Source: Planctomycetota bacterium (lineage in GTDB: Bacteria; Planctomycetota; GCA-002687715; DRQF01). Taken from it: DNA of 27,384 bases. Shown in pieces: positions 7,429 through 25,763 of the stretch. Within the stretch, counting starts at the first letter, position 1. Every line of letters starts with the position of its first letter. The notes under the pieces were generated by a model. The model was not told the DNA's origin, ran no database searches, and saw only the letters and a program-made list of their open reading frames with translations. The stretch spans positions 1-27,384 of the forward strand of contig JALTLO010000015.1 in NCBI GenBank assembly GCA_027001995.1, read 5' to 3'. A program made the translations under genes and the position numbers.

Positions 7429-7438
7429 CCACGAGCCC

Positions 7439-8116: not shown

Positions 8117-8267
8117 GAAAATAGCTCCCTTGTTGAGGCAACAGGATAAGGAAAGAAAAGGCCTATTCAAATCGAATTGAAGAACGAATCGCAAACAGGC
8201 CTTGAAGCCAACACGGGAAGTCCGGATTTTGATCAGGAAGAAACTTGCACATCAATGAAAGACTGTC

Positions 8268-9641
<1,374 letters not shown>

Positions 9642-9674
9642 ATAAGGTCCATGAGCCGGAACCGGTTGTGAAAA

Positions 9675-9694
9675 CCCCCTGTTGCCTTAGGGGG
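9675..9694 (+). terminator. weak candidate terminator hairpin after the lyase gene
   Basis: ccccct-gttgcctt-aggggg is a 6-bp GC stem. It is preceded by aaaa but not followed by an immediate T-run; a tttcttttg stretch lies ~15 nt downstream. Confidence is low. Confidence 0.25.
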
Positions 9695-9955
9695 GAGTCC
9701 AACCATTTCTTTTGCTCCACCCTCCAATAGGGCAAACGCCTACCAGGAAAGGCAATTTTCCCGGGTAGATTGAGAAGCAATTCCCATCTTTTTTGACTTT
9801 CCCTGTAATTCCTTGAAAGACAATCTATAAGACGGCGGCTGCGTTCAGTGCCGGGAGGTTGCCAATCAGAAGTTGAAGGTAAACGGTCAATCTCCCGCCG
9901 AGTTCCGCAGTGGAACAAAGAACGGATTTTGGTCTCTGTGGTTGGGGAATCACAC

Positions 9956-11527
9956 ATGAGCGTATTCGTCACTTTGATGACGGGGTTGATCATATCGATC
10001 AGCTCCGGCAGCGGTGGGACTATTGATAATCCAATTCCGCGTTTCAGCGACGGTGGACAGGTCAAACTGGCCTCCTTTGACCTTCCAAACGGTGAAGGCC
10101 TAGTTCTCTTCAATCCCAGTGATAGCTATCACGATGATCCTGGTGGCACGTTCAACTTTCGTAAAATCGAAACAACAACGAACGCTGTGCCCTACCATGG
10201 TTCTATCATGGGGGCCACGAATCTCATTCTGATTCCGGATGACCCAACCCACTACCGGACCTCATCACTCTACCCATTCACGTCTCATGTCCTCCTGGGG
10301 GGCGAGATGCTCGTGATCTACAAGAATTCTGCGGCACTCAACAAGCCCTCAGCAGCAAAGATTGCCGCTGTAAAGAATATCATCCACCAAACGAGCGCCT
10401 TGGGGCAAATTCAGTCGAATCCCCGCCTCAAACACTTCATCAAGATTCTTGCTGATTCCGGTTCTCCGGCGAATGCACCTCAAGGTGAAGACTGGGATAT
10501 GGGCTGGACTCTTCGCAATTGGGTTCAAACCGCTGGCGGAGCCCCGCGGAAAGGTTGGTTCAATTCGCTCTGCCCCCGTGGCAGCGGCGGTTTAGACAAC
10601 TGGCATTACAACCGCCTCCTCTATTTGGCCCTCAACTTCATCGAGAATCCCACCAATGAGAATTGGGAATTTGGACTCAGACAAGCCATAGCTCACGCGA
10701 CTTTAGGTCGTGAGTGGACAGGGCTTCGTAAGGGCATGGCCAAGTACGAAAAGGGTGATGTTTTCTTGGGCGACCAACAACCCGGGGATTGGGCCAAACA
10801 GTGGTCGCCTGGTTTGGTCGTCTGGGCCTTACTATCAGACAATTACATCCTCAACAAAGCCATCGCAACCACGAAGCAAATGCATATGAATGTCAACCCA
10901 ATCTTGGTTTGGCAAGGCTATTGGGGGGCCCGCTTGGCTGCTCGATACTTAGAAGAGCTCCTGATCTATTACTTGATCTCCGGCGATCCAGTCCTCCTGG
11001 GAAAAGCCCAGACCATGATCACTCATATCGAGAATCTCATCGGTCCTCAGGGCTGGTGGCCCAACTTGGGAAATGGCGGTGCGGCAGAGGAGTCACCCTG
11101 GATGCAAGCCCAGCTCGTCACCGCTATCTATCGCTGGTATGAACGAATTCCATCCTTGGAAGCGGCCACAGGGTTCACCCGCACCGAGCTGGACAACGTG
11201 GGTGCTGCTATTATGCAAGATGGTTCTGAGCTGAGGAATGGCAAGCGTGCATTGCGCTATCGCATGGGGACCACGATTGTCCCCGCGCCCTCCATGCACT
11301 TAACCTCCTTCGCGGTCCCTATGCTCCGCTATATGTCGGCCCACAATCCTCAGTACAAGCCTCTACGAAATGAAGTGACCAACTTCGTCATGGACTGGGC
11401 CGGATCCCAGTTCTCGGACATCCCCACGGGGAGTCCTCCACCCCTGCCAACCATTGGTTATCGCTTCCCCCCCCAAGGCTTCGGTTGGTCGAAGTCCATG
11501 CTCTTTTATCTGGAAGCCCTTCGTTAA
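9956..11527 (+). CDS. hypothetical secreted or membrane-anchored protein, Trp-rich, possibly an alpha/alpha-toroid enzyme-like fold
   Basis: The track ORF starts at a GTG at 9848. The ATG at 9956 gives MSVFVTLMTGLIISISSGSGG, a hydrophobic signal or anchor. The body is rich in W, Y and G motifs (GWWPNLGNGG, WEFGLRQA, VWQGYWGARLAARYLEEL). I recognise no defined family. Confidence 0.65.
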   Translation: MSVFVTLMTGLIISISSGSGGTIDNPIPRFSDGGQVKLASFDLPNGEGLVLFNPSDSYHDDPGGTFNFRKIETTTNAVPYHGSIMGATNLILIPDDPTHYRTSSLYPFTSHVLLGGEMLVIYKNSAALNKPSAAKIAAVKNIIHQTSALGQIQSNPRLKHFIKILADSGSPANAPQGEDWDMGWTLRNWVQTAGGAPRKGWFNSLCPRGSGGLDNWHYNRLLYLALNFIENPTNENWEFGLRQAIAHATLGREWTGLRKGMAKYEKGDVFLGDQQPGDWAKQWSPGLVVWALLSDNYILNKAIATTKQMHMNVNPILVWQGYWGARLAARYLEELLIYYLISGDPVLLGKAQTMITHIENLIGPQGWWPNLGNGGAAEESPWMQAQLVTAIYRWYERIPSLEAATGFTRTELDNVGAAIMQDGSELRNGKRALRYRMGTTIVPAPSMHLTSFAVPMLRYMSAHNPQYKPLRNEVTNFVMDWAGSQFSDIPTGSPPPLPTIGYRFPPQGFGWSKSMLFYLEALR

Positions 11528-11650
11528 CCCCCATGCTGAGTGGCCTTGAGGCTCCCCGTCGACAATCTCATGAATTGGGCGGGTAGTGCCTTCTCAACGC
11601 CCACAAATCCTCTATGATTTGCCTATTCAGCTATCATGTAGAGGATTATC

Positions 11651-13183
11651 ATGCTTCTCAATCGTTCTTGCGCCATTCTACTTATCCTCCTTCTATCCAA
11701 CTCCATCCAAGCTCAAGATTGGGTCCGCTTGCAAAACGGCAAGAGGATCAAAGGTGAAATCATCGTCCAAAATGAATTCTCCATCGAGATTATTGACGAA
11801 CTGGGTGAGCGCTATGAGATTCAAATCGAGGAGTACAAAAAGCTTAAGAAAGGCAAGAAACTCGCCAAGGTTTGGCGTAAGAAACTGGCCGAGTTGAATA
11901 AAGACGATAGCGACGCCATTTTTCTTGTAGCACGGGAGGCCTTTCAAAATAAGAAGACCCGCAAAGACGGAAAACGCCTTCTTCGGCGGGTCCTTTCTGT
12001 GGACGAAAACCACCCCGAGGCCCGCAAGCTCTTGGGGCATTTCAAAGTTGGAGACACTTGGTATCTCAACAAGAAAAAAGCTCAGAAATCCTTGGATGCT
12101 CACTTCGCCGCATTGGGGTTTGTACGCCACGAAAAAGGCTGGATCGATCCTGAAAAACTCGAAGATCTCAAGTCAAACATTAAGAACTGGATGATCGTCG
12201 AAGGTCAATGGCGCAACCGTGACATCGTCATGAAAGAACGGGGCTACATGAAGTTCCGCCAAGAATGGATCGCCCCTGATCTTGCTGGTTACGCCCAGCA
12301 CGCCACTCAGATCGAAGACAAAGGGGGAATCCAACTGGAGGGATCCCAAGTGGGTACCGTCGTTGTTCTCCACTGCGAAGGCAAAGAAAGAGCAGAGGCA
12401 CTGGCCACTGCCCTCTACAAAGCCCGCCTTTGGTTCGCCAAGACAATGAAAGATTCAGCCAGCGCCAAGTCGCCTCTCCAAGTAGAGATCGTGGTAAACC
12501 TCCGATCGCAGATGCATCAGATCATTGAACGATGTGGCGTTTTCTATGGCTTAGTCATTCCCCGAGAAATGCGCCGCACTTTCTCGGGCCTTTCTCACAG
12601 TAACTTTCTTGGAGGTGTCCATTCATTGGAAGCCAACATCCCAGGCGGGTTGCCCCCTGGCGCCATGCAACCACCAGGGGACTTTGCTGATCAAGGCTTG
12701 TCCCATGGTATGGTCAATGCCGCCACATCAAGGAAAGCCTACAAATTGTGGAAGAACACACGGAGCCGATTACCCTACTTCATCAGCAACGCCATGGGAG
12801 TTCATGGAGAGATCGCCGCCTTCGGAACGACCATTGTTCTCGTTTCTGTGGAAGACAGGGACTATGGCCGCAGCAACGAAAATGAATTCCATGGGAGTCG
12901 CGGTCTCAACCTCGAACAGATCAAAGAGGGCCTCAAGAAAACCTTACAAACTCGTACCATGAGCCTGCGCTCTCTCTTCTTTATGACGGGGAGTCAAATG
13001 GATCAAGAAATGGGACTATTCGGAGTCGTCTTTCTCGATTTCTTGTTGCAAGAGCAACATGAGATTTTCCTCAAGTTCTTGGCCGATGATGATACGAGCA
13101 TGACTCTCGACAAACGGTTCAAGAAGCACTTTGGAGTTGAATTCGAAAAAATGGACAAGACTTTCCGCACTTGGCTCAACTAG
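11651..13183 (+). CDS. hypothetical secreted protein with a Lys-rich N-terminal region
   Basis: It has a signal peptide, MLLNRSCAILLILLLSNSIQA|QD, and a GAGGA RBS 8 nt upstream. It is 510 aa with a highly charged, K-rich N-terminal third. I recognise no family. Confidence 0.7.
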   Translation: MLLNRSCAILLILLLSNSIQAQDWVRLQNGKRIKGEIIVQNEFSIEIIDELGERYEIQIEEYKKLKKGKKLAKVWRKKLAELNKDDSDAIFLVAREAFQNKKTRKDGKRLLRRVLSVDENHPEARKLLGHFKVGDTWYLNKKKAQKSLDAHFAALGFVRHEKGWIDPEKLEDLKSNIKNWMIVEGQWRNRDIVMKERGYMKFRQEWIAPDLAGYAQHATQIEDKGGIQLEGSQVGTVVVLHCEGKERAEALATALYKARLWFAKTMKDSASAKSPLQVEIVVNLRSQMHQIIERCGVFYGLVIPREMRRTFSGLSHSNFLGGVHSLEANIPGGLPPGAMQPPGDFADQGLSHGMVNAATSRKAYKLWKNTRSRLPYFISNAMGVHGEIAAFGTTIVLVSVEDRDYGRSNENEFHGSRGLNLEQIKEGLKKTLQTRTMSLRSLFFMTGSQMDQEMGLFGVVFLDFLLQEQHEIFLKFLADDDTSMTLDKRFKKHFGVEFEKMDKTFRTWLN

Positions 13184-13343
13184 CTTACGCCCCTCTCTCG
13201 AGGAAAACTCCTTGGCCTGGCTGAGCCGCCGATGCTTTCCATGATGACCGAATCCTGATAGAATGCCAGCGCTGTGAACAACGGCTTCGATTGTCTCTTT
13301 CACGTCAAAACCCATCCATTGCCTGAAGATCTGGAGTTGTCCT

Positions 13344-13682
13344 ATGTCTAAATCATCGAAAATCGTGAGTGGTCTCGGAATGCTATTGCTTGTTTGTCTC
13401 TTAGGCGCCGCAGTAAATTCTAAGACAAGTCTTCAAACCGAGACTAAGACAACGAGCCCCCTGGAGAAATTTGGTGTGAGCGTAGGCTCGCGCATTGTCA
13501 TTATTGATGACATGAGGCTTGCGGGATACCCAACAGATTCCCAATACCAAATAAGAGAGATCGATGGATGGCATGTTCTTTGCCACCAATCTAGCAAGAG
13601 AAAAGTCGCGGGTGTGAATCGTTTCGTCTTCAATTTGAACGAGATGTCATTCCAAATCGTGCGCCAGACAAAAGCCAAATAA
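13344..13682 (+). CDS. small secreted protein or lipoprotein, function unknown
   Basis: It is 112 aa with an N-terminal hydrophobic segment, GLGMLLLVCLLGAA (possible lipobox LLVC), and a GGAG RBS. A terminator follows. Confidence 0.55.
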   Translation: MSKSSKIVSGLGMLLLVCLLGAAVNSKTSLQTETKTTSPLEKFGVSVGSRIVIIDDMRLAGYPTDSQYQIREIDGWHVLCHQSSKRKVAGVNRFVFNLNEMSFQIVRQTKAK

Positions 13683-13709
13683 GTTCGAACATTTGATTCG
13701 AAACATCTG

Positions 13710-13750
13710 AATCTCAGACGGTCTCAAACCCGGCCTGAGATTCTTTTTTT
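13710..13750 (+). terminator. intrinsic terminator after the 112-aa gene
   Basis: aatctcag ... ctgagatt forms an 8-bp stem with a long loop and is immediately followed by cttttttt at 13743-13750. Confidence 0.55.
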
Positions 13751-13821
13751 GGCTCCCATGAAGAGTCTATCTCGCCCCTCAATCAAGAAATCGTACCCCT
13801 AAAACTCCCCTTGGGGTCTCA

Positions 13822-13848
13822 GTGACAAGAAAATCATTTTCTTGTCAC
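13822..13848. promoter_or_regulatory. 27-bp perfect palindrome, a candidate operator or RNA hairpin upstream of the SPFH gene pair
   Basis: gtgacaagaaaat-c-attttcttgtcac has 13-bp arms that are exactly self-complementary. It lies 165 bp upstream of the 14012 start and downstream of the preceding terminator, and no T-run follows it. Confidence 0.4.
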
Positions 13849-14011
13849 TATTGAGAGATTTCCCGATTTGGCGGTCAACTCCCAGAAAAAATCCCCCTAT
13901 CTTTGCACAATAGATGGCAATTGCCTTCGAAGTGATATCGACAGAATTCCTAGGATCGAAGAAGATAGGGATTCCCCAACAATTCATTCCTCGAGTTAGA
14001 AGGAAAAACTC

Positions 14012-15628
14012 ATGGATTATCAACCTCCTCAGCCACCCAATACGCCACCGCGTCGGCGCGCTCAGAGGCCGAGCCAAAGGCCACCCATCACGATCAAACA
14101 ACTCAAAGGTCCGCTAACCGTCGCATCGGTTTTCATCCTCATGGCATCAGCATGGTTCTTCTACTCCAATTGCCGCATTGATGTCCCCAGTCGACACATC
14201 GCCATCTTGATTAAGAAAACCGGCAAAGACCTGACGAACGACATGGAGATCGCACCTTCAGAAGAATACAAAGGGGTGCAAAAGATCAAACTGAGCGAAG
14301 GCCGCCATTTCTACAACCCATTTGTGTGGGATTGGGAAATCGTTCCCATGATCGAAGTCGCTGCCAACAAGCTTGGAGTCAAGGTTCGAAAGACCGGTGA
14401 CGATTTGGGTTATGGTGAAATCATCGCTTGGCAGGAAAACCAAAAAGGCATCGTACCCGATGTTCTGCGACCGGGCCGCTACCCCATCAACTCCTACGCT
14501 GAAACTGTCGAATTCCATGATCCCGTTTCAGTCCCTGCTGGTTTCAAAGGTGTTGTCACCCTCTTGGCAGCACCGATCCCTGAAGACCCGAACGTCCTCA
14601 TGGTGAAACCAGGTTTCCGCGGCGTTCAAAAAGAAACACTCGACGCCGGTCGTTACTACATTAACCCCTATGTCAAGCGCATCGATTTGGTCGACTGCCG
14701 CAGCCAAAGATTCAACTTGGCAAAAAACAAAGACATGGGATTCCCTTCAAAAGATGGCTTCTGGGTGAGTTTGGATGGGATCATTGAATTTCGCGTGAAA
14801 CCCGAACGGGCATCAGAAGTTTTTGTGACTTACAACGATGTCAGCAACGACGACGCCATCAAAGAAGAGATCATCTCAAAGATCATCCTGCCAAACGCCC
14901 GTAGCTTTTGTCGCATCCAAGGTTCCAACAAATCTGGTAGAGATTTCATCAGCGGTGACACCAGAATCCAATTCCAGAAAGATTTTCAGGATGCCATGCG
15001 GATGGAATGTGAACCATTGGGCATTGAGATCATTCAAGCCCTCATCACCCAAATCAATCCGCCCCAAGCGATTGCTGGTCCGGTCCGAAATCGAGAAGTC
15101 GCAAGACAAAAACTCAATCAATATAACCAGCAGATTCGTCAGCAAGCTTCAGAAATGAACTTAGCCGTAGAGCAAGAGCTGGTTAAGCGGGGCCAAGCAC
15201 TTGTGCGGGCCGATCAAGCCGTTGTCACCATGACTGTTCAAGCTCGAAGAATGCAAGAAGTTGCCATCACAAAGGCCAACGAGAATCTCTCTGTGGCTGG
15301 CTATAAACTCGATGCAGCGAAGGACGAGGCTGCTGCCACCATCGCTCGGGGTAAGGCCAAGGCTGACGTTCTACGTTTTGACAACGAAGCAGAGGCAGCT
15401 GGTTGGTCCGAAGCCGTTCAAGCTTTTGGCGGCAACGGCGATGAATATGCCCGCTACATTCTCTTTCAAGCCTTAGCGCCGGGATATCACAAGATTATGG
15501 CCAATACAGCCAATAGTCCCCTGATGGACATTTTCGGTAGTTTCAAGAAAGAGAATTCCCCCTTCCCCACCCCCATCAAATCGGCAAGAAAAGTAGTCCC
15601 TGCAAGTTCAGAGGAGGAAGGAAAATGA
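14012..15628 (+). CDS. flotillin-like SPFH/band-7 membrane protein, paralog A
   Basis: A Pro/Arg-rich N-terminus is followed by a TM helix (VASVFILMASAWFFY). Three N-terminal beta-module repeats each end in G(R/.)(H/Y)(F/Y).(N/C)P(F/Y/I) (GRHFYNPF, GRYPINSY, GRYYINPY). The SPFH core reads DGFWVSLDGIIEFRV ... GIEIIQALITQINPPQAIAGPV. A coiled-coil with a flotillin-type Ala/Glu-rich tract, AAKDEAAATIARGKAKADVLRFDNEAEAAG, follows. A strong RBS, gaaggaaaaactcATG, precedes the start. Confidence 0.9.
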   Translation: MDYQPPQPPNTPPRRRAQRPSQRPPITIKQLKGPLTVASVFILMASAWFFYSNCRIDVPSRHIAILIKKTGKDLTNDMEIAPSEEYKGVQKIKLSEGRHFYNPFVWDWEIVPMIEVAANKLGVKVRKTGDDLGYGEIIAWQENQKGIVPDVLRPGRYPINSYAETVEFHDPVSVPAGFKGVVTLLAAPIPEDPNVLMVKPGFRGVQKETLDAGRYYINPYVKRIDLVDCRSQRFNLAKNKDMGFPSKDGFWVSLDGIIEFRVKPERASEVFVTYNDVSNDDAIKEEIISKIILPNARSFCRIQGSNKSGRDFISGDTRIQFQKDFQDAMRMECEPLGIEIIQALITQINPPQAIAGPVRNREVARQKLNQYNQQIRQQASEMNLAVEQELVKRGQALVRADQAVVTMTVQARRMQEVAITKANENLSVAGYKLDAAKDEAAATIARGKAKADVLRFDNEAEAAGWSEAVQAFGGNGDEYARYILFQALAPGYHKIMANTANSPLMDIFGSFKKENSPFPTPIKSARKVVPASSEEEGK

Positions 15629-17214
15629 AAATCAACAAAACAGTAATCCCCCTTGTTCTTCTTGGGGCCGTCGGCTTTGTCCTTACTTTTCACTGGACGA
15701 TCAACCGCACCTACGTCGAGCGTGGCCAAAGTCTCATGTTGCGCTACAAAGGGCCACTTCTCTTCGGCAAGAGACAGACCGCCCGTGTGGGCCATTACGC
15801 CGAGGAAGGAGAAATTGGAGTTTTGAGGGAACTGCGAGGGCCGGGGCGTCATTTCTATTGTCCCATTTGGTGGGAAGTGAAAATCGTAGACGACATCGTC
15901 ATACGCCCTGGAGAAGTGGCAGTCGTTCGTTCTTCCTTGGGAGAAGACCTACCCAAAGGCCAATACCTTGTCGACGGCGACTTGGGTGAAACTCAATTCA
16001 AGGGTGTCATGAGAACCGTTTTTGGACCAGGTCGATACCGCGTCAATCCCTATGCCTACGAGTTTAACATTGTTCAACGAGCGACCAAGAGACTGGGTGG
16101 TCAAATCAAATACAGTGGATGGGTCGAGATCCCCACGGGATACGTAGGTGTCGTCACCAACCTGGCAGACAATTTGATCACCGGTGCCAAAAAAGGCATT
16201 CAAGATAAGGTCTTGCCTCCTGGTATTTACCCCATCAATGGTAAAGAGCAAGAAGTTGACATCATTGAGATCGGTTTCCGAGAAGCAACTGTTGGGGTTG
16301 AAAAGAAAAGAAGTCGAGACGGCTCGTTGATTCTCGACAAAAGTGGAGAGCCCCAAATCAAGGACACCAGCAAGGGGATCCACTTCCCATCCAACGATGG
16401 TTTCCAGATTCACATGGATTTCACCGCTATCTGGGGCATCATGCCAAGCGCAGCACCCAAAATCATCAAGACATTCGGAAACATCCAGGCTGTGGAAGAC
16501 AAAGTTGTTCTGCCGCAGATTGAAAGCATTTGTCGTAACAATGGATCGAGGTATTCAGCCGTGGAACTCTTGGTTGGTGAAGACCGGCAAAAGTTCCAAG
16601 CACAAACGACAGACGCTTTTCGAACGGTCTTGAACCTCAAAGATATCTCTCTTCAATACGGTTTGGTGCGACACATCTACATTCCAGTCCAAGTTCGCGA
16701 ACCGATCCAGAACGCTTTTATCGCTGATGAACTTAAGCTCACTCGGGACCAAGAACAACTAACGGCGAAAGTTGAAGGAAAGCTCAGGGAAGCCGAAAAG
16801 AAAGTAGAATTGGAGTCAGAGAAAGTTCGCGCCGAAACGGACAAGGAAGTCGCCGAGGCCATGGCCAAAGGGGCAAAGGTCGTGGGCGAAACTGCGGCGG
16901 AAACCGAAAAACTCGTGGCCAAAATTGACCGCCAAGTAGCAGAATTAGAGGCTCAAGCCACAGTTGTTCGGGGCCATGCGGGAGCTGAGTCCGAGAAACT
17001 GCAGCAGCAGGCCAAGGCGAGCAAGTTCACTTTGGCGGTGAAGGCGTTTGGTTCTGGTTCGGCCTACACACGTTGGGTTTTTGCATCCGGGTTGCCTGAA
17101 GATATTACGCTTCAACTACTCTATGCTGGAGAAGGCACTCTATGGACCGATCTCAAGGGCTTCACGGAGACTATGTTAGGAAAGCAAATGACAGAGAAGC
17201 GTCGCCGACCTTAG
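15625..17214 (+). CDS. flotillin-like SPFH/band-7 membrane protein, paralog B, translationally coupled to paralog A
   Basis: The ATGA overlap with the upstream stop (15625-15628) and a GAGGAGGAAGG RBS indicate coupling. It has the same architecture: a TM helix (IPLVLLGAVGFVLTF), GPGRHFYCPIWWEVKIV, GPGRYRVNPY and PPGIYPING modules, an SPFH core, and a long E/K/A-rich coiled-coil, EKVRAETDKEVAEAMAKGAKVVGETAAETEKLVAKIDRQVAELEAQA. Confidence 0.9.
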   Translation: MKINKTVIPLVLLGAVGFVLTFHWTINRTYVERGQSLMLRYKGPLLFGKRQTARVGHYAEEGEIGVLRELRGPGRHFYCPIWWEVKIVDDIVIRPGEVAVVRSSLGEDLPKGQYLVDGDLGETQFKGVMRTVFGPGRYRVNPYAYEFNIVQRATKRLGGQIKYSGWVEIPTGYVGVVTNLADNLITGAKKGIQDKVLPPGIYPINGKEQEVDIIEIGFREATVGVEKKRSRDGSLILDKSGEPQIKDTSKGIHFPSNDGFQIHMDFTAIWGIMPSAAPKIIKTFGNIQAVEDKVVLPQIESICRNNGSRYSAVELLVGEDRQKFQAQTTDAFRTVLNLKDISLQYGLVRHIYIPVQVREPIQNAFIADELKLTRDQEQLTAKVEGKLREAEKKVELESEKVRAETDKEVAEAMAKGAKVVGETAAETEKLVAKIDRQVAELEAQATVVRGHAGAESEKLQQQAKASKFTLAVKAFGSGSAYTRWVFASGLPEDITLQLLYAGEGTLWTDLKGFTETMLGKQMTEKRRRP

Positions 17215-18685: not shown

Positions 18686-20728
18686 TTACGCCTCTTCCAA
18701 TGCCGCTCTCAACTTGTGGATCGAGCGAACAAGTTCTGAAAACAGCGATCCAGTCAAGGCTTGCTCCTTGTCACAAAGAGCCATGCTGGGGTCGGGATGG
18801 ACTTCAACAATAATGCCATCAGCCCCCACCGCTGCAGCAGCCAGGGCCAAGGGTGTCACTAAGTCCCGGCGCCCAGCAGCATGGGAAGGGTCAACAATAA
18901 CAGGCAAGTGAGTCCTTGACCGTAATACGGGTATGGCCGAGACGTCCAAAGTATTGCGCGTGGCGGTTTCGAAGGTACGAATGCCTCGTTCACACAAGAC
19001 AACCTGATTATTGCCACCTGCCATGATATATTCCGCTGCGTCCAAGAGGTCGCCAACTGTGGCACTCATCCCTCTTTTTAGCAGGACCGGTCGGTGGCAT
19101 TGCCCCAGTTCTTTCAATAGTTCAAAGTTCTGCATGTTGCGGGCACCAACTTGAAGCATAGAAGCACTGGCAGCGACCCGTTCAACAGCATCTGGGGTGA
19201 GCACCTCAGTCACCACGGGAAGATCCATTTGATCTCCGGCTTCACGCAAGAAATCTAGGCCCGCGTACCCCAAACCCTGGAAGGAATAGACGCTTGATCG
19301 CGGCTTGAATGCGCCGCCCCGAAGAATCGCAGCTCCTCTCTCCTTTACTAAGCTCGCCGCAGCAAAGATCTGCTCCCGGCTCTCTACTGCACAGGGACCA
19401 GCGATAAAAGTGAAACCACCCCCACCGATGGTCACATCCCCTACGGTGACGGTTGAACGCTCACCATCGCCGCGGCCTTTGGCCAATGGCGGGCCAGGTA
19501 ATGTCTCACCCATCTCGATTCTATGGGACTCATCCCTATCTCTGCCTTTGTCCTTCAACACCACCGGAATAGATGGGACGTCCCTAGTCCGGGAAGGATA
19601 GGACCCCAAGATTCGAAACTGATTGCAATGGGGACGTGCGGCAGCGATGGCATCAGCGACGCGGCTGTCGTTTTGATGGCCTTCAACATCAACTAAAAAC
19701 ACGTATTCCCAGGGTGAATCAGGCTCGGGACGACTCTCGATGCGGCAAAGATTGACTTCAGACTTGGCGAAACAACTCAAAGCACGAAAAAGAGCCCCAG
19801 GCCGATGAGCCGCATGAAGAATCAAACTCGTCTTACTTGGTAAAGAGGCGTCAGACGTTTCCTGGGTGGTCGCCAGGAGAACGAACCGGGTCATATTATT
19901 GCGCGAATCGGAGAGCTCATCTTGAAGGATCTTAAGACCATAGAACTCAGCAGCTTCTGGTGGACAAAGAACCCCCACTCCAGACTCTTGCGTCTTGGCT
20001 AATTCGGCGGCGGCCCCCGCCGTGTCCGAACGAGGTTGTGCCACAACCCCACTCAAACCATGGAGAAACCGCGTACTCTGAGCCAAGGCCGCCGGATGAG
20101 AGCGCACCTCTTTGATGTCGCTCAGGCGACTATGGGGCAAAGACGCCAAGACATGCTCAACCTGCCAAGTCTCTTCGCCAACGATACAAACTCGCCGTTG
20201 AGTCAAGATTCTATTGACTTCGGGGATTCCACCTATGACCGTGTTCTCTACGGGAAGAAACCCATAGTCGATGGAGCCATGTTCCAAGGAATGAACCACA
20301 GCATCAAAACTCTCATGAGCTACCGTTTCAAATGGGCATGCTCGGACGTCGAACATTTTTCTCGCCCCAAGGTCGCTGTTGCAGAAGGAGGCTCCCTGGA
20401 ATCCAACACGGACAATGGATGGCTCGATACATTGCTTTTCTCTTGACGTAGCGGCTTCCTGGCTGCGTCTGGAGTATTGCAATATCTCCCGCAGGACCCG
20501 GCCCACAAAATGGGAAGAGAGTCCTGCTGCATCGGCTTCCCCACGCCAAGATTCCAACAAACGTGCTTCTCGCGAGGGGTCCCAAATCGGTGAGCCGTCC
20601 TCCGCTTTTATCTCGCCAACTCGCCGGACAGCGTCCATCCTCTTGGCCAACAATTGGACAAAGGAACGATCAAGCTCTTCGATATCAGCTCTGATTTCCT
20701 TCAATCTTGATTTTGGACTTTCGGTCAT
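18686..20728 (-). CDS. trifunctional fusion: chorismate mutase (AroQ) - prephenate dehydratase with ACT domain (PheA) - DAHP synthase (class I-beta / KDO8PS-like core)
   Basis: The N-terminus, [34 protein letters not shown], is an AroQ chorismate mutase helix. The middle, [14 protein letters not shown]...[13 protein letters not shown]...TRFVLLA...[35 protein letters not shown], is the PDT catalytic domain plus the ACT regulatory domain. The C-terminal ~265 aa, [21 protein letters not shown]...[18 protein letters not shown]...[15 protein letters not shown]...[12 protein letters not shown], is a DAHP/KDO8P synthase I-beta core. A GAGGA RBS precedes the start. Confidence 0.9.
18689..19471 (-). 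other. DAHP synthase I-beta catalytic core, about aa 420-680
   Basis: [22 protein letters not shown] and [10 protein letters not shown] motifs. It has no separate N-terminal ferredoxin-like regulatory domain; the CM/PDT/ACT region occupies that position. Confidence 0.6.
19559..20431 (-). other. prephenate dehydratase catalytic plus ACT domain, about aa 100-390
   Basis: PDT blocks and ACT-like C-terminal segment ([32 protein letters not shown] ... VFLVDVEGH). Limits are approximate. Confidence 0.6.
20444..20728 (-). other. chorismate mutase (AroQ) domain of the trifunctional protein, about aa 1-95
   Basis: Helical CM_2-type sequence, [51 protein letters not shown]. Limits are approximate. 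Confidence 0.6.
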
Positions 20729-20970: not shown

Positions 20971-22131
20971 CTATTTTCCTGCCATAAATGACTGGAGCCG
21001 CCCCATAGCTTCCTGGAGGCGTTCGTCTGCAAGGCCGCAAGATAGGCGCAAGAACCCAGGAGTACCGAAGGCCGAACCCGGAACAACCTTCAAACCCTCT
21101 TTCTGCAACAAGACAGAAGCGAGAGCACGATCATCAACGACGTCGTTCTGCTCCAACCACCCTTGAACTTGAGGAAAGACATAAAACGCGGCTTCTGGTT
21201 TTCTCAATTCGACACCACCTACCTGGCATAAGGCTTCCCCCACCAATTCCGCACGCCTGCCATAACGACGGCGTTGCTCAAGGACCCACGATTGATCCAT
21301 GCTCAATGCGCAAAGGCCAGCATATTGGGCGGGCATACATGGGTGTGTCGTCGTGGCTTGGGCAAGTTTGGCGAGGGAGTCGATCAACTTCGAAGGCCCC
21401 ACCGCGCAACCAAGGCGAATCCCCGTCATCGAATATGACTTAGAAAAGCTCTCAATGATGATGGTCTGTTCTTTAATTTCTGGAGCAACTTGCAGAAGCC
21501 GTGGAATCTCATCTGCAAATGCCAGCCCGACATAAACCTGATCTGACAAGACCCAAAGGTCATTCTCTTGAGCCAACTGAGCCAAAGCCGTCAAAATCGA
21601 CTCCGGATAAACCAAGCTGGTGGGATTGGAGGGACTATTGATGATGATCGCCTTGGTCCTGGCACTAAAGAGCGAATTGAGAACCTCCAAATTGGGCAAG
21701 AGGTCATCATCAGCCGGGCACACCACCGCTTTCGCCCCACACCACTCCACTTGTTGAATAAATGTAGGCCAATAGGGAGCAAAGACGATCACTTCATCCC
21801 CCGGACTCAATAGACTTCTCAAGGTGTCCATCAAAGCGGGTTTCCCCCCCGCTGTTACTATGACGTTCTCAGAAGAAAAGGAGACTCCGTTTTGCTCCCC
21901 CACAACCTGTGCCAAACTTTCTCGAAGCTGGGGTATCCCCTGAGCCGGCCCATAGCGCAGATGACCGTCCTCAATGGCTTGAGAAAACGCCTTCAGAATG
22001 GGCGCAGCGGGTAATTCCTCGGGTTCACCAACCGCCAAATTGATGGGGTCAGGATGGTCCGTCGCTGCTGCCGCTGCCCCCATGGTGGCAGAAGCAGGAA
22101 TCGACAGAGATAATGCATTCAATTCTGGCAT
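20971..22131 (-). CDS. class I/II PLP aminotransferase (aspartate / aromatic-amino-acid aminotransferase family)
   Basis: SFSKSYSMTGIRLG is the fold-type I aminotransferase Lys motif, as in AspB/TyrB/HisC relatives. The protein is ~386 aa. The track start at 22134 is a TTG; the ATG at 22131 with a GAGGGG RBS is preferred. Confidence 0.85.
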   Translation of the reverse strand: MPELNALSLSIPASATMGAAAAATDHPDPINLAVGEPEELPAAPILKAFSQAIEDGHLRYGPAQGIPQLRESLAQVVGEQNGVSFSSENVIVTAGGKPALMDTLRSLLSPGDEVIVFAPYWPTFIQQVEWCGAKAVVCPADDDLLPNLEVLNSLFSARTKAIIINSPSNPTSLVYPESILTALAQLAQENDLWVLSDQVYVGLAFADEIPRLLQVAPEIKEQTIIIESFSKSYSMTGIRLGCAVGPSKLIDSLAKLAQATTTHPCMPAQYAGLCALSMDQSWVLEQRRRYGRRAELVGEALCQVGGVELRKPEAAFYVFPQVQGWLEQNDVVDDRALASVLLQKEGLKVVPGSAFGTPGFLRLSCGLADERLQEAMGRLQSFMAGK

Positions 22132-22257
22132 CAAAAGCCCCTCAAGAAATTCAAAATGCCCAAGAACGATTGAGCTAATCGAAACTCAGGGACATAGTAT
22201 AAGAAGAAGTCCAAAGTTGGTGAATACTTTGAAATCAGGAAACGGTCTCAGTCAACT

Positions 22258-23310
22258 ATGAGTTCATGGAAATTTGAAACCAGCAGCTCCACCAATTGTT
22301 GCATCTTGGTCACCCCTGGCCAAGCCAGGAACCTCACTGCGGTTTTAGCCCCACAAGACTATGACGGCGTTTTCTTGGTCCATGATGTTGCGATGAGAGA
22401 AATCGCCACAGAAATCGACGATCAACTGAACTGCAGCCTGGTTCATGAGTTGGTTCCCGGGGAGTCAGAAAAGACCTTGGTCACGGTGGGCGAAGTCGCT
22501 GCTCTACTCTTGGCCGCTGGAGCAACTCGCAAATCTCTCATCATCGGCTTAGGAGGCGGCGTCACCTGCGATCTGGTGGCCTTCTTGGCCTCTATCTACC
22601 AACGTGGAATTGCTTGTGCTCTCCTTCCCACCACCATGTTGGCCATGGTAGATGCCTCCGTGGGAGGAAAAAACGGTGTCGACCTCGGTGTCGTCAAAAA
22701 CATGCTCGGCACCATTCGCCAACCCCACCTCATCGTTATTGACCCGAATTTCATCGAGACTTTGCCCGATGAGGAGCTCCGCGATGGGCTGGTCGAAGTG
22801 ATCAAAAAAGCAGCCATCTTGGACAGGAAGATATTTGCTCAGCTCCGAAAATCCGTGGAGGACCTTCGAAACCGAGCCCCAAAGGCCCTCGAATTCACCA
22901 TCAAAGCTGCCATCGAAATGAAATTGGCCGTTGTTCAGAAGGACGAGAGAGAAAGTGGTGTCAGAAAACTGCTCAACTTTGGTCATACGGTTGGCCATGC
23001 CATCGAGTCTCTGTCGGCGTTTTCGATCAGCCACGGTGCCGCTGTCGCCTTGGGTATGAGAATCGAACTTCTCATGGGGCCCACCCCTTTGCCTGCCCTC
23101 CTCCGCTTGCTCAAAGATCTCCATGTGAATCTCGATCTGCCAAGCCAACTCCTGGATCCGGTTGCGCTTTGGAAGGTGATGCTCAAAGACAAGAAGAACC
23201 AGAACAACCAAGTCCACATGGCCGTACCAACCGCTCTTGGATCTGGAGCCCTTCTGTCAATCGAAGAAAACGACTTGGCTCGGGCTGTTAGCGACCTCAA
23301 GGGAGAAACG
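22258..23310 (+). other. 3-dehydroquinate synthase domain (approximate limits)
   Basis: DHQS glycine-rich NAD-binding motif and the metal-binding His blocks (FGHTVGHAIE). Confidence 0.6.
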
Positions 23311-25071
23311 AAGGTATTACGCCCGCTCCTGGGCCCCTTCGACTTAAGCCTCAAACTCCCAGGATCCAAATCTGTTGCCAACCGAGCCATTGTTTTGGCC
23401 GCTCTTTCGATGAGACAAACTCGTATCAGAAACGCCACACCCTGTGAAGATGTCCTGGCATTGGTGAATGGCTTGAGAGCCCTCGGCTTCGATGTGCAAT
23501 GGGTGGACAAGGAATCCGGTTGTTTGGTGATTCAAGGAGGAATTCCCCAAAGTCTTTCTCAGCCAGATCCTGTCACCATCAACTGCGGAAACGCCGGCAC
23601 TGCCCTCAGATTCCTCACGTCGATAGCAGCGTTAGTCCCCGGTCAATGGATCTTGACGGGCAACAAGCACATGCAGAAACGGCCAATCAAACCGCTGGTT
23701 GATGCCTGGGAAAAATTGGGAATCCAAATGTCAGCTCCCAGCGGATGCCCCCCCATCACCATCACCGGCGGTAGGCCAGTAAGCAATCAAGTGGCACTCG
23801 ACGCCAGCATCAGCAGTCAGTTTCTTTCTTCACTCCTCTTAGTAGCTTCCCAAGTCGAAGATGGTCTTCAAATTACTTTGAACAAAGAGCCATCATCCAA
23901 TTCTTACGTCGACATTACCAAGAAGGTCATGGCGCAATTCGGCCAAGAAGTGAACGATCAAGGATTGAAGTTTCATGTGGTCGACTCGCGCCCCAAGCAC
24001 AACTTGGAATTCGAGGTGGAAGGTTGCTGGAGTTCCGCCGGTTTCTTTTTCGCTTTAGCCGACCTCGTTGAGGGTCGCTTTAGGGGGGAGAATCTTAGTG
24101 ACGATTCCCCTCAAGGCGATCGCCTTGTGCCAAGTGTGATCGAGTCGATGAAAACGACCGACCCAATGACCCTCGATGTTTCTCAGATGCCCGATCAATT
24201 GATGAACTTAGCCGTACTGGCGGCAAGAAGATCGGCTCCCACTCATTTCATCGGCGCGAAGAATCTCCGTTTCAAAGAATGTGATCGACTTGCAATCACT
24301 TGTCGCGAACTCAAACGCGCGGGCATCGACGCTCAAGAACACGAAGACGGGATCGATGTCTTAGGCATCATCGACTCCCCCAAGACAATCTGCTTCCACC
24401 CAGAAGACGACCATCGTTTGGCTATGGCATTCACCGCCATAGGCCTGATGCGTTCAGGCTGCACCATGAAACAACCCCACTGCGTCGCTAAGAGTTTCCC
24501 TCGATTCTTCGACATCATCGACGACATCTTTGCTGTCCGCCGCCCCTTGGTTCTTATCGGAATGCCGGCCTCCGGCAAATCAACTTTGGCCGCAAGACTC
24601 AGTACGACTTTAACCCTCCCATGGCAAGACAGTGATGACGTCTTCAAAGATCGACACGGCGATATTTGCACCTTCGTCCTATCTCATGGCTGGAATCGTT
24701 TCCGCGCCTTAGAACAAGAGATATGCCAAGAGCTTCTGGAAACAGAAGGCATCATCGCATTGGGAGGAGGCGCTTTGGAGTGCCCACAGACCGCCCTTCT
24801 CTGCCGAGAGAAAGCCTTCGTCATTTGGCTCAACGAAGACCTCAGAACAATTCGCAATCGTTTGGAACAGCCCAGCAATACCCGTCCGCCGCTCACATCC
24901 AAGAGCCCAGCGGATGAGATTCAGTTCTTGGACCAAAAACGAAGACCCGTGTTCGAAAAAGTGAATCACCTCAAGGTCCCAGGAGGTTTGTCGTCAATAG
25001 ACCAAGAAAAACACGTTCTCCTGATGCTTGAGAAGAGATTCCAATGGCCTCGGACCTCAGCCGCCAAATGA
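22258..25071 (+). CDS. trifunctional fusion: 3-dehydroquinate synthase (AroB) - EPSP synthase (AroA) - shikimate kinase (AroK), in the same domain order as the first three domains of eukaryotic AROM
   Basis: aa ~1-350 is DHQS-like: GLGGGVTCDLVAFLA, DASVGGKNG, NFGHTVGHAIE. aa ~352-760 is EPSPS-like: LKLPGSKSVANRAIVLAAL near its N-terminus, NCGNAGTALRFL, and HRLAMAFTAIGL near its C-terminus. aa ~761-937 is shikimate kinase-like: LVLIGMPASGKSTLA Walker A, then LGGGA. Confidence 0.9.
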   Translation: MSSWKFETSSSTNCCILVTPGQARNLTAVLAPQDYDGVFLVHDVAMREIATEIDDQLNCSLVHELVPGESEKTLVTVGEVAALLLAAGATRKSLIIGLGGGVTCDLVAFLASIYQRGIACALLPTTMLAMVDASVGGKNGVDLGVVKNMLGTIRQPHLIVIDPNFIETLPDEELRDGLVEVIKKAAILDRKIFAQLRKSVEDLRNRAPKALEFTIKAAIEMKLAVVQKDERESGVRKLLNFGHTVGHAIESLSAFSISHGAAVALGMRIELLMGPTPLPALLRLLKDLHVNLDLPSQLLDPVALWKVMLKDKKNQNNQVHMAVPTALGSGALLSIEENDLARAVSDLKGETKVLRPLLGPFDLSLKLPGSKSVANRAIVLAALSMRQTRIRNATPCEDVLALVNGLRALGFDVQWVDKESGCLVIQGGIPQSLSQPDPVTINCGNAGTALRFLTSIAALVPGQWILTGNKHMQKRPIKPLVDAWEKLGIQMSAPSGCPPITITGGRPVSNQVALDASISSQFLSSLLLVASQVEDGLQITLNKEPSSNSYVDITKKVMAQFGQEVNDQGLKFHVVDSRPKHNLEFEVEGCWSSAGFFFALADLVEGRFRGENLSDDSPQGDRLVPSVIESMKTTDPMTLDVSQMPDQLMNLAVLAARRSAPTHFIGAKNLRFKECDRLAITCRELKRAGIDAQEHEDGIDVLGIIDSPKTICFHPEDDHRLAMAFTAIGLMRSGCTMKQPHCVAKSFPRFFDIIDDIFAVRRPLVLIGMPASGKSTLAARLSTTLTLPWQDSDDVFKDRHGDICTFVLSHGWNRFRALEQEICQELLETEGIIALGGGALECPQTALLCREKAFVIWLNEDLRTIRNRLEQPSNTRPPLTSKSPADEIQFLDQKRRPVFEKVNHLKVPGGLSSIDQEKHVLLMLEKRFQWPRTSAAK
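23311..24540 (+). other. EPSP synthase (3-phosphoshikimate 1-carboxyvinyltransferase) domain (approximate limits)
   Basis: LPGSKS.ANR motif plus C-terminal DHRLAMAF-type block. Confidence 0.6.
24541..25068 (+). other. shikimate kinase domain (approximate limits)
   Basis: GMPASGKST P-loop about 15 aa after the EPSPS C-terminal block. The ~175-aa size fits AroK. Confidence 0.6.
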
Positions 25072-25145: not shown

Positions 25146-25763
25146 CTAAGAACTTGCTGCTAACAGCAGCGCTTTTTTGAGTTTGAATTTGAAAGCATTC
25201 AAGTCTTCTTGTTCAAGATCATGACAACCATGCAGTCGCAAGTAAGCATGGACAGCCAACCCCGTCGGCAAGAAAATCGCTTTCTTCCAGGCCTTCTGTG
25301 CCAAGCCGCGAAAAACGGTTTTCTCAATGAGGCTATTGGTGCCAAACGTCTGAACGAGCACAGCCCCTTTGTCGCCGAGCAGCCCCTTAGGCGAGCCCCC
25401 TTCGTCCTGGGCAATGGCAATTCCTTCTACCAAAATACGATCGACCCAGCCCTTCAAGATTGCTGGCATGCTAAACCACCAAACAGGATGAAGAAAAACG
25501 ATGATATCCGCCCACTGAACATCTTCAGCATAGCTATGTGCCAAAGGATCATCGGACTTTCTGGGCGCCCCCGCGACCATCTCGTCTTTTCCGAGCCGCA
25601 AGACAGGATCAAACCCATCTTCCAAGAGATCGTGAAGACGACAAAGAAAGCCAGCCTGCGCTAATTCATCGCAGACAAAATCCCGCAACTCACAACCTAA
25701 GCCCGTCCTTCGCCCATGACCGAAGACGACAAGGAAACGTTTTTTCCTCTCTTCGACCACCAT
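25146..25763 (-). CDS. flavodoxin-fold NAD(P)H dehydrogenase (quinone)-like protein (Flavodoxin_2 / NQO1-MdaB-KefG-like)
   Basis: LVVFGHGRR at the N-terminus and IIVFLHPVWWFSMPAILKGWVDRIL are typical of the FMN-dependent NAD(P)H:quinone oxidoreductase family. A GAGGG RBS precedes the start. Confidence 0.75.
   Translation of the reverse strand: MVVEERKKRFLVVFGHGRRTGLGCELRDFVCDELAQAGFLCRLHDLLEDGFDPVLRLGKDEMVAGAPRKSDDPLAHSYAEDVQWADIIVFLHPVWWFSMPAILKGWVDRILVEGIAIAQDEGGSPKGLLGDKGAVLVQTFGTNSLIEKTVFRGLAQKAWKKAIFLPTGLAVHAYLRLHGCHDLEQEDLNAFKFKLKKALLLAASS
25156..25178 (+). terminator. candidate plus-strand terminator for the AroB-AroA-AroK gene, lying inside the 3' coding end of the convergent minus-strand gene
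   Basis: gctgct-aac-agcagc is a 6-bp stem with a 3-nt loop, followed by gctttttt (T6 at 25173-25178). On the minus strand the same bases encode KALLLAASS* of the flavodoxin-fold protein. The hairpin is short, so confidence is low. Confidence 0.35.

Follow-up and report, generated by a model that had tools for sequence, protein, structure and literature searches.

How a bacterial gene came to encode three shikimate pathway enzymes in the very order in which they open AROM, the pentafunctional polypeptide of fungi and protists, and whether the two share an ancestry, are the questions raised by this locus. The gene lies on a Planctomycetota contig, within the 27,384-nucleotide stretch of DNA that was analysed as a whole and is referred to here as the window. 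AROM begins, from its N to its C terminus, with 3-dehydroquinate (DHQ) synthase (DHQS), EPSP synthase (EPSPS) and shikimate kinase (SK) (PMC6851490). A first-pass annotation, made from the sequence alone, had recognised the same three enzymes in the bacterial protein and had taken them to bear on the origin of AROM and on substrate channelling. The gene and its parts occupy the following positions:

22258..25071, plus strand: complete trifunctional gene aroB·aroA·aroK, stop codon included (open reading frame, domain calls and orthologues)
22309..23271, plus strand: DHQS domain, pathway step 2, residues 18-338 (NCBIfam aroB, residues 18-338; Pfam, residues 65-314)
23284..23343, plus strand: AroB-to-AroA junction, residues ~343-362 (alignment with orthologues and junction analysis)
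23347..24516, plus strand: class I EPSPS domain, step 6, residues 364-753 (Pfam, E 6e-80; TIGR01356)
24544..25068, plus strand: SK domain, step 5, residues ~763-937 (Pfam SKI, residues 771-912)

The gene is a single unbroken open reading frame (ORF) of 937 amino acids, with an ATG start, zero internal stops and an even GC content (0.515-0.527). Pfam domain calling recovered all three enzymes, as DHQ_synthase (residues 65-175, E 9e-38) with DHQS_C (177-314, E 6e-33), EPSP_synthase (364-753, E 6e-80) and SKI (771-912, E 3e-27), the ORF ending at 25071 about 25 residues past the SK domain. These coordinates agree with the arrangement that had been claimed, namely that of the first three AROM domains, which is non-sequential with respect to the pathway (steps 2, 6 and 5). 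AroB joins AroA at residues ~345-350 and AroA joins AroK at ~758-763, matching the junctions previously placed near positions 23300 and 24540. At the first of them the AroB C terminus (...ARAVSD) runs straight into LKGETKVLRPLLGPFDLSLKL and then into the PGSKS motif, and the ~20 residues N-terminal of PGSKS align with the N terminus of stand-alone AroA·K proteins; the fusion point unites the C terminus of AroB with the N terminus of A·K. The linker between EPSPS and SK measures about 5 residues or fewer.

Orthologues that are only 48-52% identical retain the catalytic motifs of each of the three enzymes. In the DHQS domain, which matches PF01761 and PF24621, the NAD, Zn and substrate motifs (GGGxxxD at 99, D132..K138, E180, N240/H243/H247, H259 and DKK at 311) are retained in all three divergent orthologues; its top PDB match is the DHQS of V. 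cholerae (175 bits), and it aligns with DHQS structures at a TMt of 0.80-0.88 (Foldseek). The protein scores 313 bits with the NCBIfam aroA model TIGR01356 (cut-off 287), and the EPSPS residues equivalent to E. coli K22, R27, G96, R124, S169-Q171, D313, K340/E341/R344, H385/R386 and K411 are invariant in the orthologues. The top PDB matches of this domain are class I enzymes (5xwb, 3nvs and 1g6s), whereas the class II enzyme CP4 scores far lower (84 bits), and its TMt to closed EPSPS structures is 0.85-0.89 (Foldseek). Every element of the SK motif set tested (Walker A, the shikimate-binding DxD, the Arg plus GGG, and the LID arginines) is present in the PF01202 domain, as G768-S775, D791/D793, R816, GGG 836-838, R876 and R895, and its top PDB matches are bacterial SKs (53-58 bits). 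The SK domain stays below every individual SK equivalog cut-off of NCBIfam, which is common for divergent domains. Judged by its residues, the protein would be a functional trifunctional enzyme of the shikimate pathway.

The genes adjoining the fusion also belong, in part, to aromatic amino acid biosynthesis:

18686..20728, minus strand: four-domain fusion of chorismate mutase, prephenate dehydratase, ACT and type Ibeta DAHP synthase (CM-PDT-ACT-DAHPS), 680 aa (Pfam)
20971..22134, minus strand: class I/II aminotransferase, divergent from the fusion (Pfam Aminotran_1_2, E 2e-63)
22135..22257, no strand: divergent intergenic region of 123 bp that separates the fusion gene from the aminotransferase gene and presumably holds their promoters
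25146..25763, minus strand: Flavodoxin_2 / FMN-reductase-like gene, convergent with the fusion (Pfam)

CM-PDT-ACT-DAHPS (NCBIfam NF006421, 415 bits; PDB 5j6f, 319 bits, and 1rzm, 310 bits) covers step 1 of the pathway together with the phenylalanine branch, and adjoins the triple fusion in loci L001 and L002 and unfused aroB and aroA·K in L012. The aminotransferase, probably an aromatic or aspartate aminotransferase of the same cluster, is syntenic in L001 and L002, and long aro operons likewise end in an aminotransferase. Of the loci compared, L001/L002, L004 and L011 alone have a homologue of the Flavodoxin_2 gene directly downstream; all triple-fusion lineages keep the gene in this position, and its functional link to the fusion is uncertain. 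The conserved gene order as a whole reads two Band_7 genes, AT5, CM-PDT-ACT-DAHPS, AT, B·A·K, Flavodoxin_2 and CCP. In the 123-bp intergenic region, matches to promoter consensus sequences were no commoner than in shuffled sequence, scans for promoter and terminator consensus sequences remaining at background level, and a search for regulatory RNAs or leaders gave zero Rfam matches in the window, this region included. Type I DHQase, shikimate dehydrogenase (SDH) and chorismate synthase were sought in the window by phmmer, and type II DHQase among its remaining ORFs by Pfam scans, and none was found, which bears out the earlier remark that AroD and AroE are missing from the window. With aroD, aroE and aroC encoded elsewhere, the fusion, the divergent CM-PDT-ACT-DAHPS and the aminotransferase would together lead to chorismate and phenylalanine.

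The same architecture recurs in distinct organisms and samples, as expected of the genuine fusion that had been proposed and not of three genes merged by error. A survey of relatives recovered at least five distinct B·A·K sequences, from different samples and with conserved neighbours. The 937-aa protein itself is identical on three contigs (the window and two other assemblies); P0446, on a separate contig, is 92.5% identical to it; P0002, found in a JGI metagenome and in an independent SRA assembly, is 52% identical; and the P0003 cluster, which includes P0448, is 48% identical. In L001, L002 and L004 the B, A and K matches all fall on one ORF each. The spacing of the PGSKS motif is equal in all fusion orthologues, which points to a single fusion event. 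The architecture is nevertheless rare, with one ~940-aa cluster (at 50% identity) among 1.84 billion representatives. Locus L011, cut off by a contig end, is a possible fourth fusion lineage. Other candidates were discarded: tblastn matches spanning residues ~5-930 in ~25 GTDB genomes had suggested many more triple fusions, but the aroB and aroA·K frames differ there; P0340 (926 aa) and P0333 (971 aa) group with AROM and appear to be fragments of eukaryotic origin; and the 'Terriglobus' AROM P0047 lies on a contig that is a eukaryotic contaminant.

Neighbour-joining trees were built for each domain, with sequences sampled from searches seeded with the fusion protein. In all three the fusion nests among Planctomycetota AroB or AroA·K sequences, and AROM falls outside the smallest clade around the fusions in 200 of 200 bootstraps for AroA, 200 of 200 for AroB and 189 of 200 for AroK. 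The AroB clade uniting Planctomycetota, 'Peribacteria' and the fusion is supported at 99%, whereas bootstrap values are low (21-68%) at the inner nodes by which the fusion clade is placed inside the radiation of Planctomycetota. Mean distances of the fusion are 0.96-1.20 to Planctomycetota versus 1.40-1.84 to AROM. The top matches of the AroB domain are stand-alone Planctomycetota AroB proteins, and the best 120 matches of the EPSPS domain are all AroA·AroK proteins of ~580 aa, those with a name coming nearly all from Planctomycetota. These AroA·AroK proteins (P0145 of strain Pla163, P0078 and P0089, for instance) are 40-50% identical to the fusion over EPSPS and SK, share the order A then K and the tight linker between them, and enclose the fusion in the trees; unlike it, they have no N-terminal DHQS, which is encoded by a separate, overlapping upstream gene. 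They constitute the direct parent family of the fusion. The statement that bacteria usually encode these enzymes as separate genes or fused in pairs holds, with the qualification that Planctomycetota very commonly have the AroA·AroK pair, so that the step to three domains is a small one.

The unfused state, a common arrangement in Planctomycetota, is found in ~35 genomes, in which aroB is followed by aroA·K as a separate, overlapping gene; the stop of aroB and the start of aroA·K overlap as ATGA or GTGA in 8 of the 11 unfused relatives, and locus L012 (gene map <cm·pdt·G< B A·K C) is the unfused counterpart of the window. Ancestrally, aroB would have stood directly upstream of an already fused aroA·aroK with such an overlap. 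Because the stop of one gene overlaps the start of the other, one frameshift would suffice: a frameshift or stop loss at the overlap, in the ancestor of a small clade, would have brought aroA·K in frame with aroB and yielded one essentially linker-free polypeptide. The fusion is a young, lineage-specific join of aroB to aroA·K, although the preference for a derived over an early-branching fusion is in part an argument from parsimony and from the sharing of the ATGA overlap.

The fusion shares with AROM (Aro1), as represented by the structures from Chaetomium thermophilum (6HQV) and Candida albicans (7U5S), the DHQS-EPSPS-SK order, very short linkers and the fold of each domain, and DHQS is the likely dimerisation module in both, the fusion presumably dimerising in the same manner. 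It differs in stopping after SK, with three of the five AROM domains and with DHQase and SDH missing from the whole window, and in having a bacterial origin of its own, from the aroB and aroA·K pair, with domains that are not allied to those of AROM either in the bootstrapped trees or in PDB bit scores. The AlphaFold2 (AF2) monomer model is confident (pLDDT 94.9, pTM 0.90), including the junction (pLDDT 91-95). Domain by domain the model superposes on the corresponding enzymes, whereas the full-length chain fails to superpose on AROM (TMq 0.42): against 6HQV and 7U5S Foldseek gave a TMq of 0.41-0.43 and an rmsd of 26-29 Å. EPSPS is mobile in AROM, and the inter-domain packing of the fusion is predicted to differ.

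Several other readings of these data were weighed. An indel or a lost stop in one contig might have merged two or three neighbouring genes, given that a one-base error would mimic a fusion where the aroB and aroA·K genes of relatives overlap by 4 nt in different frames, and that gene callers could be misled by several high-GC loci in which the reading frame of A·K runs through aroB without a stop (937-945 aa from stop to stop). The recurrence of the single ORF in P0446, in both independent assemblies of P0002 and in P0003/P0448, the N-terminal 350 residues that are truly AroB and in frame in the fusion proteins, and a junction of conserved length that is confidently modelled reduce the probability of such an artefact to almost nothing. 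It might also be that at least one domain is catalytically dead or repurposed, as documented for one AROM, the Aro1 of Candida albicans, whose DHQase domain is inactive (PMC9074039), or that the AroB-like domain acts as a sugar-phosphate cyclase in a secondary-metabolite pathway. Indeed, the score with the aroB model TIGR01357 is just below its cut-off (296.7 against 305 bits, NCBIfam), and the model of an AroB-related cyclase, TIGR04425, also matches, with 205 bits for a cut-off of 400. However, the motif residues of DHQS, EPSPS and SK are all kept across divergent orthologues, DHQS enzymes in the PDB outscore the EEVS and DOIS cyclases (140-175 versus 105-111 bits), the adjoining genes belong to primary aromatic amino acid metabolism, and members of the same AroB clade are encoded in complete aro operons of sister genomes; we regard loss or change of function as very unlikely.

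The relation to AROM was examined in the same way. The gene could descend from AROM, by transfer from a eukaryote and loss of DHQase and SDH, or could be the direct ancestor of the N-terminal half of AROM, and the identical domain order, the top Foldseek match by E-value (AROM) and the annotation of P0002 as a 'pentafunctional AROM polypeptide' by both JGI and NCBI would all accord with this. Eukaryotic AROMs also rank next after Planctomycetota in full-length searches (30-37% identity over 85-95% of the query), but this rank is high because the scores of three domains add up, and the affinity was ruled out by single-domain searches. Domain by domain, bacterial enzymes outscore AROM in the PDB (175-197 bits for gammaproteobacteria versus 148-150 for EPSPS, and 53-58 versus 22-25 for SK), Planctomycetota supply hundreds of much closer AroB and AroA·K proteins, the bootstrapped trees of the three domains never place AROM next to the fusion, the global TM to AROM equals one domain alone at best, and unfused intermediates are present in the same phylum. 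Common descent of the two fusions is therefore extremely improbable, and the suggestion that the gene bears on the origin of AROM was not upheld. Finally, the triple fusion could be ancestral in this part of Planctomycetota, with aroB and aroA·K arising by fission, and, with the low values at the nodes that place the fusion clade exactly, early branching would agree with the trees taken alone. The unfused ATGA/GTGA state, however, is common to two large sister groups, the Planctomycetota-labelled and the 'Peribacteria'-labelled genomes (~35 loci), the fused state is confined to one narrow cluster, and repeated splits that each remade a 4-nt overlap are far less parsimonious than one fusion, which makes fission hardly probable. 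The best explanation, to which we assign a probability of roughly 85%, is that of a genuine trifunctional enzyme of an uncultured Planctomycetota lineage, formed by the join of aroB to aroA·K and convergent with AROM. The likeness to the first three AROM domains is convergent, and stems from a shared gene order rather than from shared descent of the fusion.

For an enzyme formed in this way, the likely benefits would be a fixed 1:1:1 stoichiometry, co-expression, co-folding and, for shikimate-3-phosphate, the closeness of the SK site to the EPSPS site. No true channelling would be expected: the argument for it is weak because steps 2, 6 and 5 are not consecutive and because AROM itself, according to the passage of PMC9074039 that cites Veraszto 2020, does not raise throughput over that of its isolated domains.

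Other bacterial fusions join subsets of the same enzymes. AroB·AroA proteins of ~720-830 aa (for example P0012 in L007 and P0027 in L008), which probably belong to Bacteroidota, likewise have the DHQS-EPSPS order and derive from adjacent genes, but they have no kinase domain, aroK being a separate downstream gene in L007, and they fall in different sequence clades from the window protein, which indicates an independent fusion event. AroK·AroB proteins of the PRK13951/PRK14021 type (P0042-P0077) unite two of the same three enzymes, but in the reverse order, without EPSPS and in different clades; the window protein matches these two models weakly (202 and 176 bits, for cut-offs of 560 and 565; NCBIfam). 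AroD·AroE proteins (DHQase-SDH), known from plants, Planctomycetes and some archaea, reflect the same tendency of shikimate genes to fuse, but cover steps 3 and 4 and are absent from the window; they are present in 198 Planctomycetes assemblies (PMC11237513). Fusions along the AROM order, namely A·K, B·A, D·E and B·A·K, were thus encountered repeatedly. In ~20 bacterial genomes aroD·aroE directly follows aroA·K in an operon of aroB, aroA·aroK and aroD·aroE with overlapping stops and starts, collinear with AROM, and B-A(-K) adjacency is also seen in Bacteroidota-like and Bdellovibrionales-labelled loci. These AROM-collinear operons are more interesting than the fusion itself. They allow the conjecture, which we consider unlikely, that the AROM order (DHQS-EPSPS-SK-DHQase-SDH, steps 2-6-5-3-4) is a frozen bacterial operon order, AROM having been built by stop-codon loss from an operon acquired by an early eukaryote; the triple fusion would then resemble an intermediate without being the actual ancestor.

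A literature search returned nothing on a natural bacterial DHQS-EPSPS-SK fusion, and to our knowledge this architecture has so far been undescribed in bacteria. It provides a clean and datable case of the stepwise growth of a multi-enzyme polypeptide from a translationally coupled operon, first A with K and then B with A·K, in which the fused and unfused states exist side by side within one phylum. A database entry is corrected as well: the orthologue MFT7618354.1 carries the erroneous label 'pentafunctional AROM polypeptide'. The fusion also calls for caution in the study of AROM, given that the same domain order can arise convergently. Conversely, the AROM-collinear bacterial operons make the question of why that order exists testable by comparative genomics, and the fusion would be a convenient, half-size bacterial comparator for AROM with respect to the kinetic benefit of fusing enzymes.

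The gene at 22258-25071 is one uninterrupted ORF encoding 3-dehydroquinate synthase (DHQS), EPSP synthase (EPSPS) and shikimate kinase (SK) in that order, as the first-pass annotation had proposed from sequence alone, and the Pfam boundaries agree with its estimates of the domain junctions. The features of the window considered here are the following:

8268-9641, + strand: tryptophanase/tyrosine phenol-lyase family gene (NCBIfam NF009709, 676 bits)
14012-17214, + strand: tandem pair of SPFH/Band_7 paralogues (538 and 529 aa), positionally conserved in L001, a locus of another triple-fusion lineage
18686-20728, - strand: CM-PDT-ACT-DAHPS four-domain fusion, 680 aa (chorismate mutase, prephenate dehydratase, ACT, type Ibeta DAHP synthase)
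22258-25071, + strand: aroB·aroA·aroK fusion gene, 937 aa, ATG start; Pfam matches DHQ_synthase + DHQS_C (aa 65-314), EPSP_synthase (aa 364-753) and SKI (aa 771-912)
25146-25763, - strand: Flavodoxin_2/NAD(P)H-FMN-reductase-like gene, convergent with and just downstream of the fusion gene

Pfam E-values of the fusion domains were about 1e-27 to 1e-80; the protein scored above the NCBIfam equivalog cut-off for aroA (313 bits, cut-off 287) and just below that for aroB (296.7 bits, cut-off 305). Homology and domain searches found no gene for DHQase, shikimate dehydrogenase (SDH) or chorismate synthase within the window, which bears out the earlier statement that AroD and AroE are absent from it.

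The possibility that adjacent genes had been merged by a sequencing error, raised in the first-pass annotation, is excluded, because the architecture recurs, and synteny and the catalytic motifs of all three enzymes are conserved among orthologues only 48-52% identical. An identical protein occurs on two more contigs from other assemblies (ENA ERZ23495147 scaffold_2646 and NCBI GCA_015485455.1), and the same single chain in four further distinct sequences: P0446 (92.5% identical), P0002 (52%; a JGI metagenome and an independent SRA assembly), and P0003 and P0448 (both 48%). Around them the gene order is that of the window, from a Band_7 gene pair and a class V aminotransferase through CM-PDT-ACT-DAHPS and an aminotransferase to the fusion, Flavodoxin_2 and cytochrome c peroxidase (CCP). 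The window protein and P0003, only 48% identical, belong to two organisms of one metagenome (ERZ23495147, sample SAMN12239307; loci L092 and L004), so that the triple-fusion clade is diverse within a single habitat.

The architecture is rare. Searched exhaustively with HMMER, 1.84 billion cluster representatives yielded a single one of ~940 aa (P0003); the other matches were AroA·AroK proteins of ~580 aa, AroB·AroA proteins of ~720-830 aa and proteins of AROM length (1200-1800 aa). Among GTDB species representatives, the sole possible carrier is the Planctomycetota MAG Dive96_bin3.79 (L011), which may carry the fusion: its sequence, 52% identical and sharing the downstream Flavodoxin_2-ScdA-CCP synteny, ends at residue 387 with the contig.

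Single-domain queries were used to remove the bias of summing scores over three domains. The best 120 matches of the EPSPS domain were all two-domain AroA·AroK proteins (40-50% identity), the named ones nearly all from Planctomycetota, and the DHQS domain best matched stand-alone Planctomycetota AroB (42-47%). Among solved structures, every domain scored higher against bacterial enzymes than against AROM:

EPSPS domain: bacterial enzymes 175-197 bits, AROM 148-150 bits
DHQS domain: bacterial enzymes 162-175 bits, AROM 152-158 bits
SK domain: bacterial enzymes 53-58 bits, AROM 22-25 bits

In neighbour-joining trees of each domain (200 bootstraps each), the smallest clade around the fusions contained only Planctomycetota-type sequences, and AROM was absent from it in 200/200 (AroA), 200/200 (AroB) and 189/200 (AroK) replicates. 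The AroB clade joining Planctomycetota, 'Peribacteria'-labelled and fusion sequences had 99% support, and the fusions were monophyletic in 191 of the 200 AroB replicates. The suggestion that this gene bears on the evolutionary origin of AROM is not supported; the sequence comparisons point instead to convergence with AROM and an obvious simple origin. An AlphaFold2 monomer model built from a 133-sequence alignment (pLDDT 94.9, pTM 0.90) placed AROM first by E-value in a Foldseek search of the PDB, because three domains align in series. Single domains reached TMt values of 0.85-0.89 to EPSPS and 0.80-0.88 to DHQS. The predicted inter-domain packing appears to differ from that of AROM, since the global TM was only 0.41-0.43, the value obtained from the lone EPSPS domain, with an rmsd of 26-29 A; as a model, it fits an independent origin.

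The probable origin was traced by mapping the ORFs of about 50 related loci, and three arrangements emerged. About 20 MAGs (L003, L005, L014-L020, L022, L023, L025, L027-L029, L031, L035-L037 and L057, around positions 7000-17000 in each) carry a complete operon of overlapping genes, DAHPS-aroB-aroA·K-aroD·E-aroC-CM-PDH-PDT-aminotransferase, whose B-A-K-D-E stretch is collinear with AROM. The majority are labelled Candidatus Peribacteria or Peregrinibacteria, and in EPSPS and DHQS they group with Planctomycetota; to our knowledge, candidate-phyla-radiation bacteria usually lack full aromatic amino-acid pathways, so that such a pathway would be unexpected if these MAGs truly belonged there. Other Planctomycetota have aroB-aroA·K-aroC or aroA·K-aroC. 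In L012, an unfused relative, the divergent CM-PDT-ACT-DAHPS gene adjoins separate aroB and aroA·K genes, which is the arrangement of the window before fusion. The aroB stop and aroA·K start overlap as ATGA or GTGA in 8 of the 11 unfused loci examined. Within the fusions, AroB ends in '...ARAVS' and is followed at once by ~20 residues corresponding to the N-terminus of stand-alone AroA·K, and the PGSKS motif lies at an equal distance in all orthologues; a single frameshift in a single ancestor would thus suffice to join aroB to aroA·K. In four high-GC Planctomycetota loci (L034 7154-9964, L038 7985-10795, L039 7976-10810, L042 1510-4320), the A·K frame extends upstream through aroB for ~350 codons without a stop, aroB itself being read in another frame, and the resulting stop-to-stop ORFs of 937-945 aa mimic the triple-fusion length and could be mis-called as such.

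A second, independent route, by point mutation of a stop codon, led to the Bacteroidota-type B-A fusion. Six Bacteroidota-labelled loci have aroB and aroA in one frame, separated by a lone TGA, TAA or TAG (L046 1153-1161; L047 8883-8891; L049 8913-8921; L051 4073-4081; L052 and L056 8901-8909); the aroA ATG follows 0-3 codons past the stop in four, and no nearby aroA ATG was seen in L052 and L056. True AroB·AroA fusions (720-830 aa, ~36 clusters; e.g. L007 1796-4195 and L008 69-2408) group with these loci. An AROM assigned to 'MAG: Terriglobus roseus' (L091; GCA_015069745.1, JADCRX010000016.1, 1710-6566) is not taken to be bacterial: the gene has an intron-like split and adjoins a gene with a eukaryotic EAF domain, and the bin is almost certainly contaminated with eukaryotic DNA. 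Another protein, P0063 (JGI 3300072015, 939 aa), has DHQS, SK, DHQase and SDH domains without EPSPS, resembling an AROM missing a different part, and the AroB tree groups its DHQS with that of a eukaryotic AROM.

The fusion gene lies among primary aromatic amino-acid genes and its three catalytic domains are intact; the protein would catalyse steps 2, 5 and 6 of chorismate synthesis. The neighbouring CM-PDT-ACT-DAHPS gene, which places the first common step and the Phe branch on one chain, also occurs at L001 (6669-8702), in L012 and at the start of L007, its position being kept beside both fused and unfused aroB/aroA·K. Whereas the regulatory domain of Bacillus and Geobacillus DAHPS is CM only, here DAHPS bears a whole P-protein, suggesting built-in feedback control. 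Every triple-fusion lineage has the convergent Flavodoxin_2 gene just downstream of the fusion (L001 13423-14028; L004 3449-4069; L011 3386-3988), and it is missing from all of the other ~50 loci. Because chorismate synthase requires reduced FMN, a functional link between the two is conceivable, although the position may simply be inherited synteny. The tryptophanase/tyrosine phenol-lyase family gene, some 9 kb away from the biosynthetic genes, encodes an enzyme that degrades aromatic amino acids; the SPFH/Band_7 pair shows no obvious connection with the aro genes. The fusion would dimerise through DHQS, an obligate dimer (PMC6851490), and its advantage would be that the three enzymes are made in fixed stoichiometry and, perhaps, that the SK and EPSPS sites lie close together. 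No channelling would be gained between non-consecutive steps; in the passage of PMC9074039 citing Veraszto 2020, AROM shows no throughput gain over its isolated domains.

In function the fusion would resemble the AROM N-terminal half, but it does not qualify as an AROM: only three of the five domains are present, and none of them shows phylogenetic affinity to AROM; the packing in the monomer model also appears different. The orthologue MFT7618354.1 is mislabelled in the database as 'pentafunctional AROM polypeptide'. The fusion belongs to the Planctomycetota AroA·AroK family, with DHQS as an added part. An aroD-aroE fusion of Planctomycetes is documented (PMC11237513), and our literature searches for AroA·AroK or AroB·AroA·AroK fusions found no description; the protein is a real, rare and, as far as we found, undescribed variant of the multifunctional shikimate enzymes. 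Since some bacterial operons run collinear with AROM (B, A·K, D·E), and fusions along that order have arisen repeatedly, an inheritance of the AROM order from a bacterial operon is possible, if of low probability.
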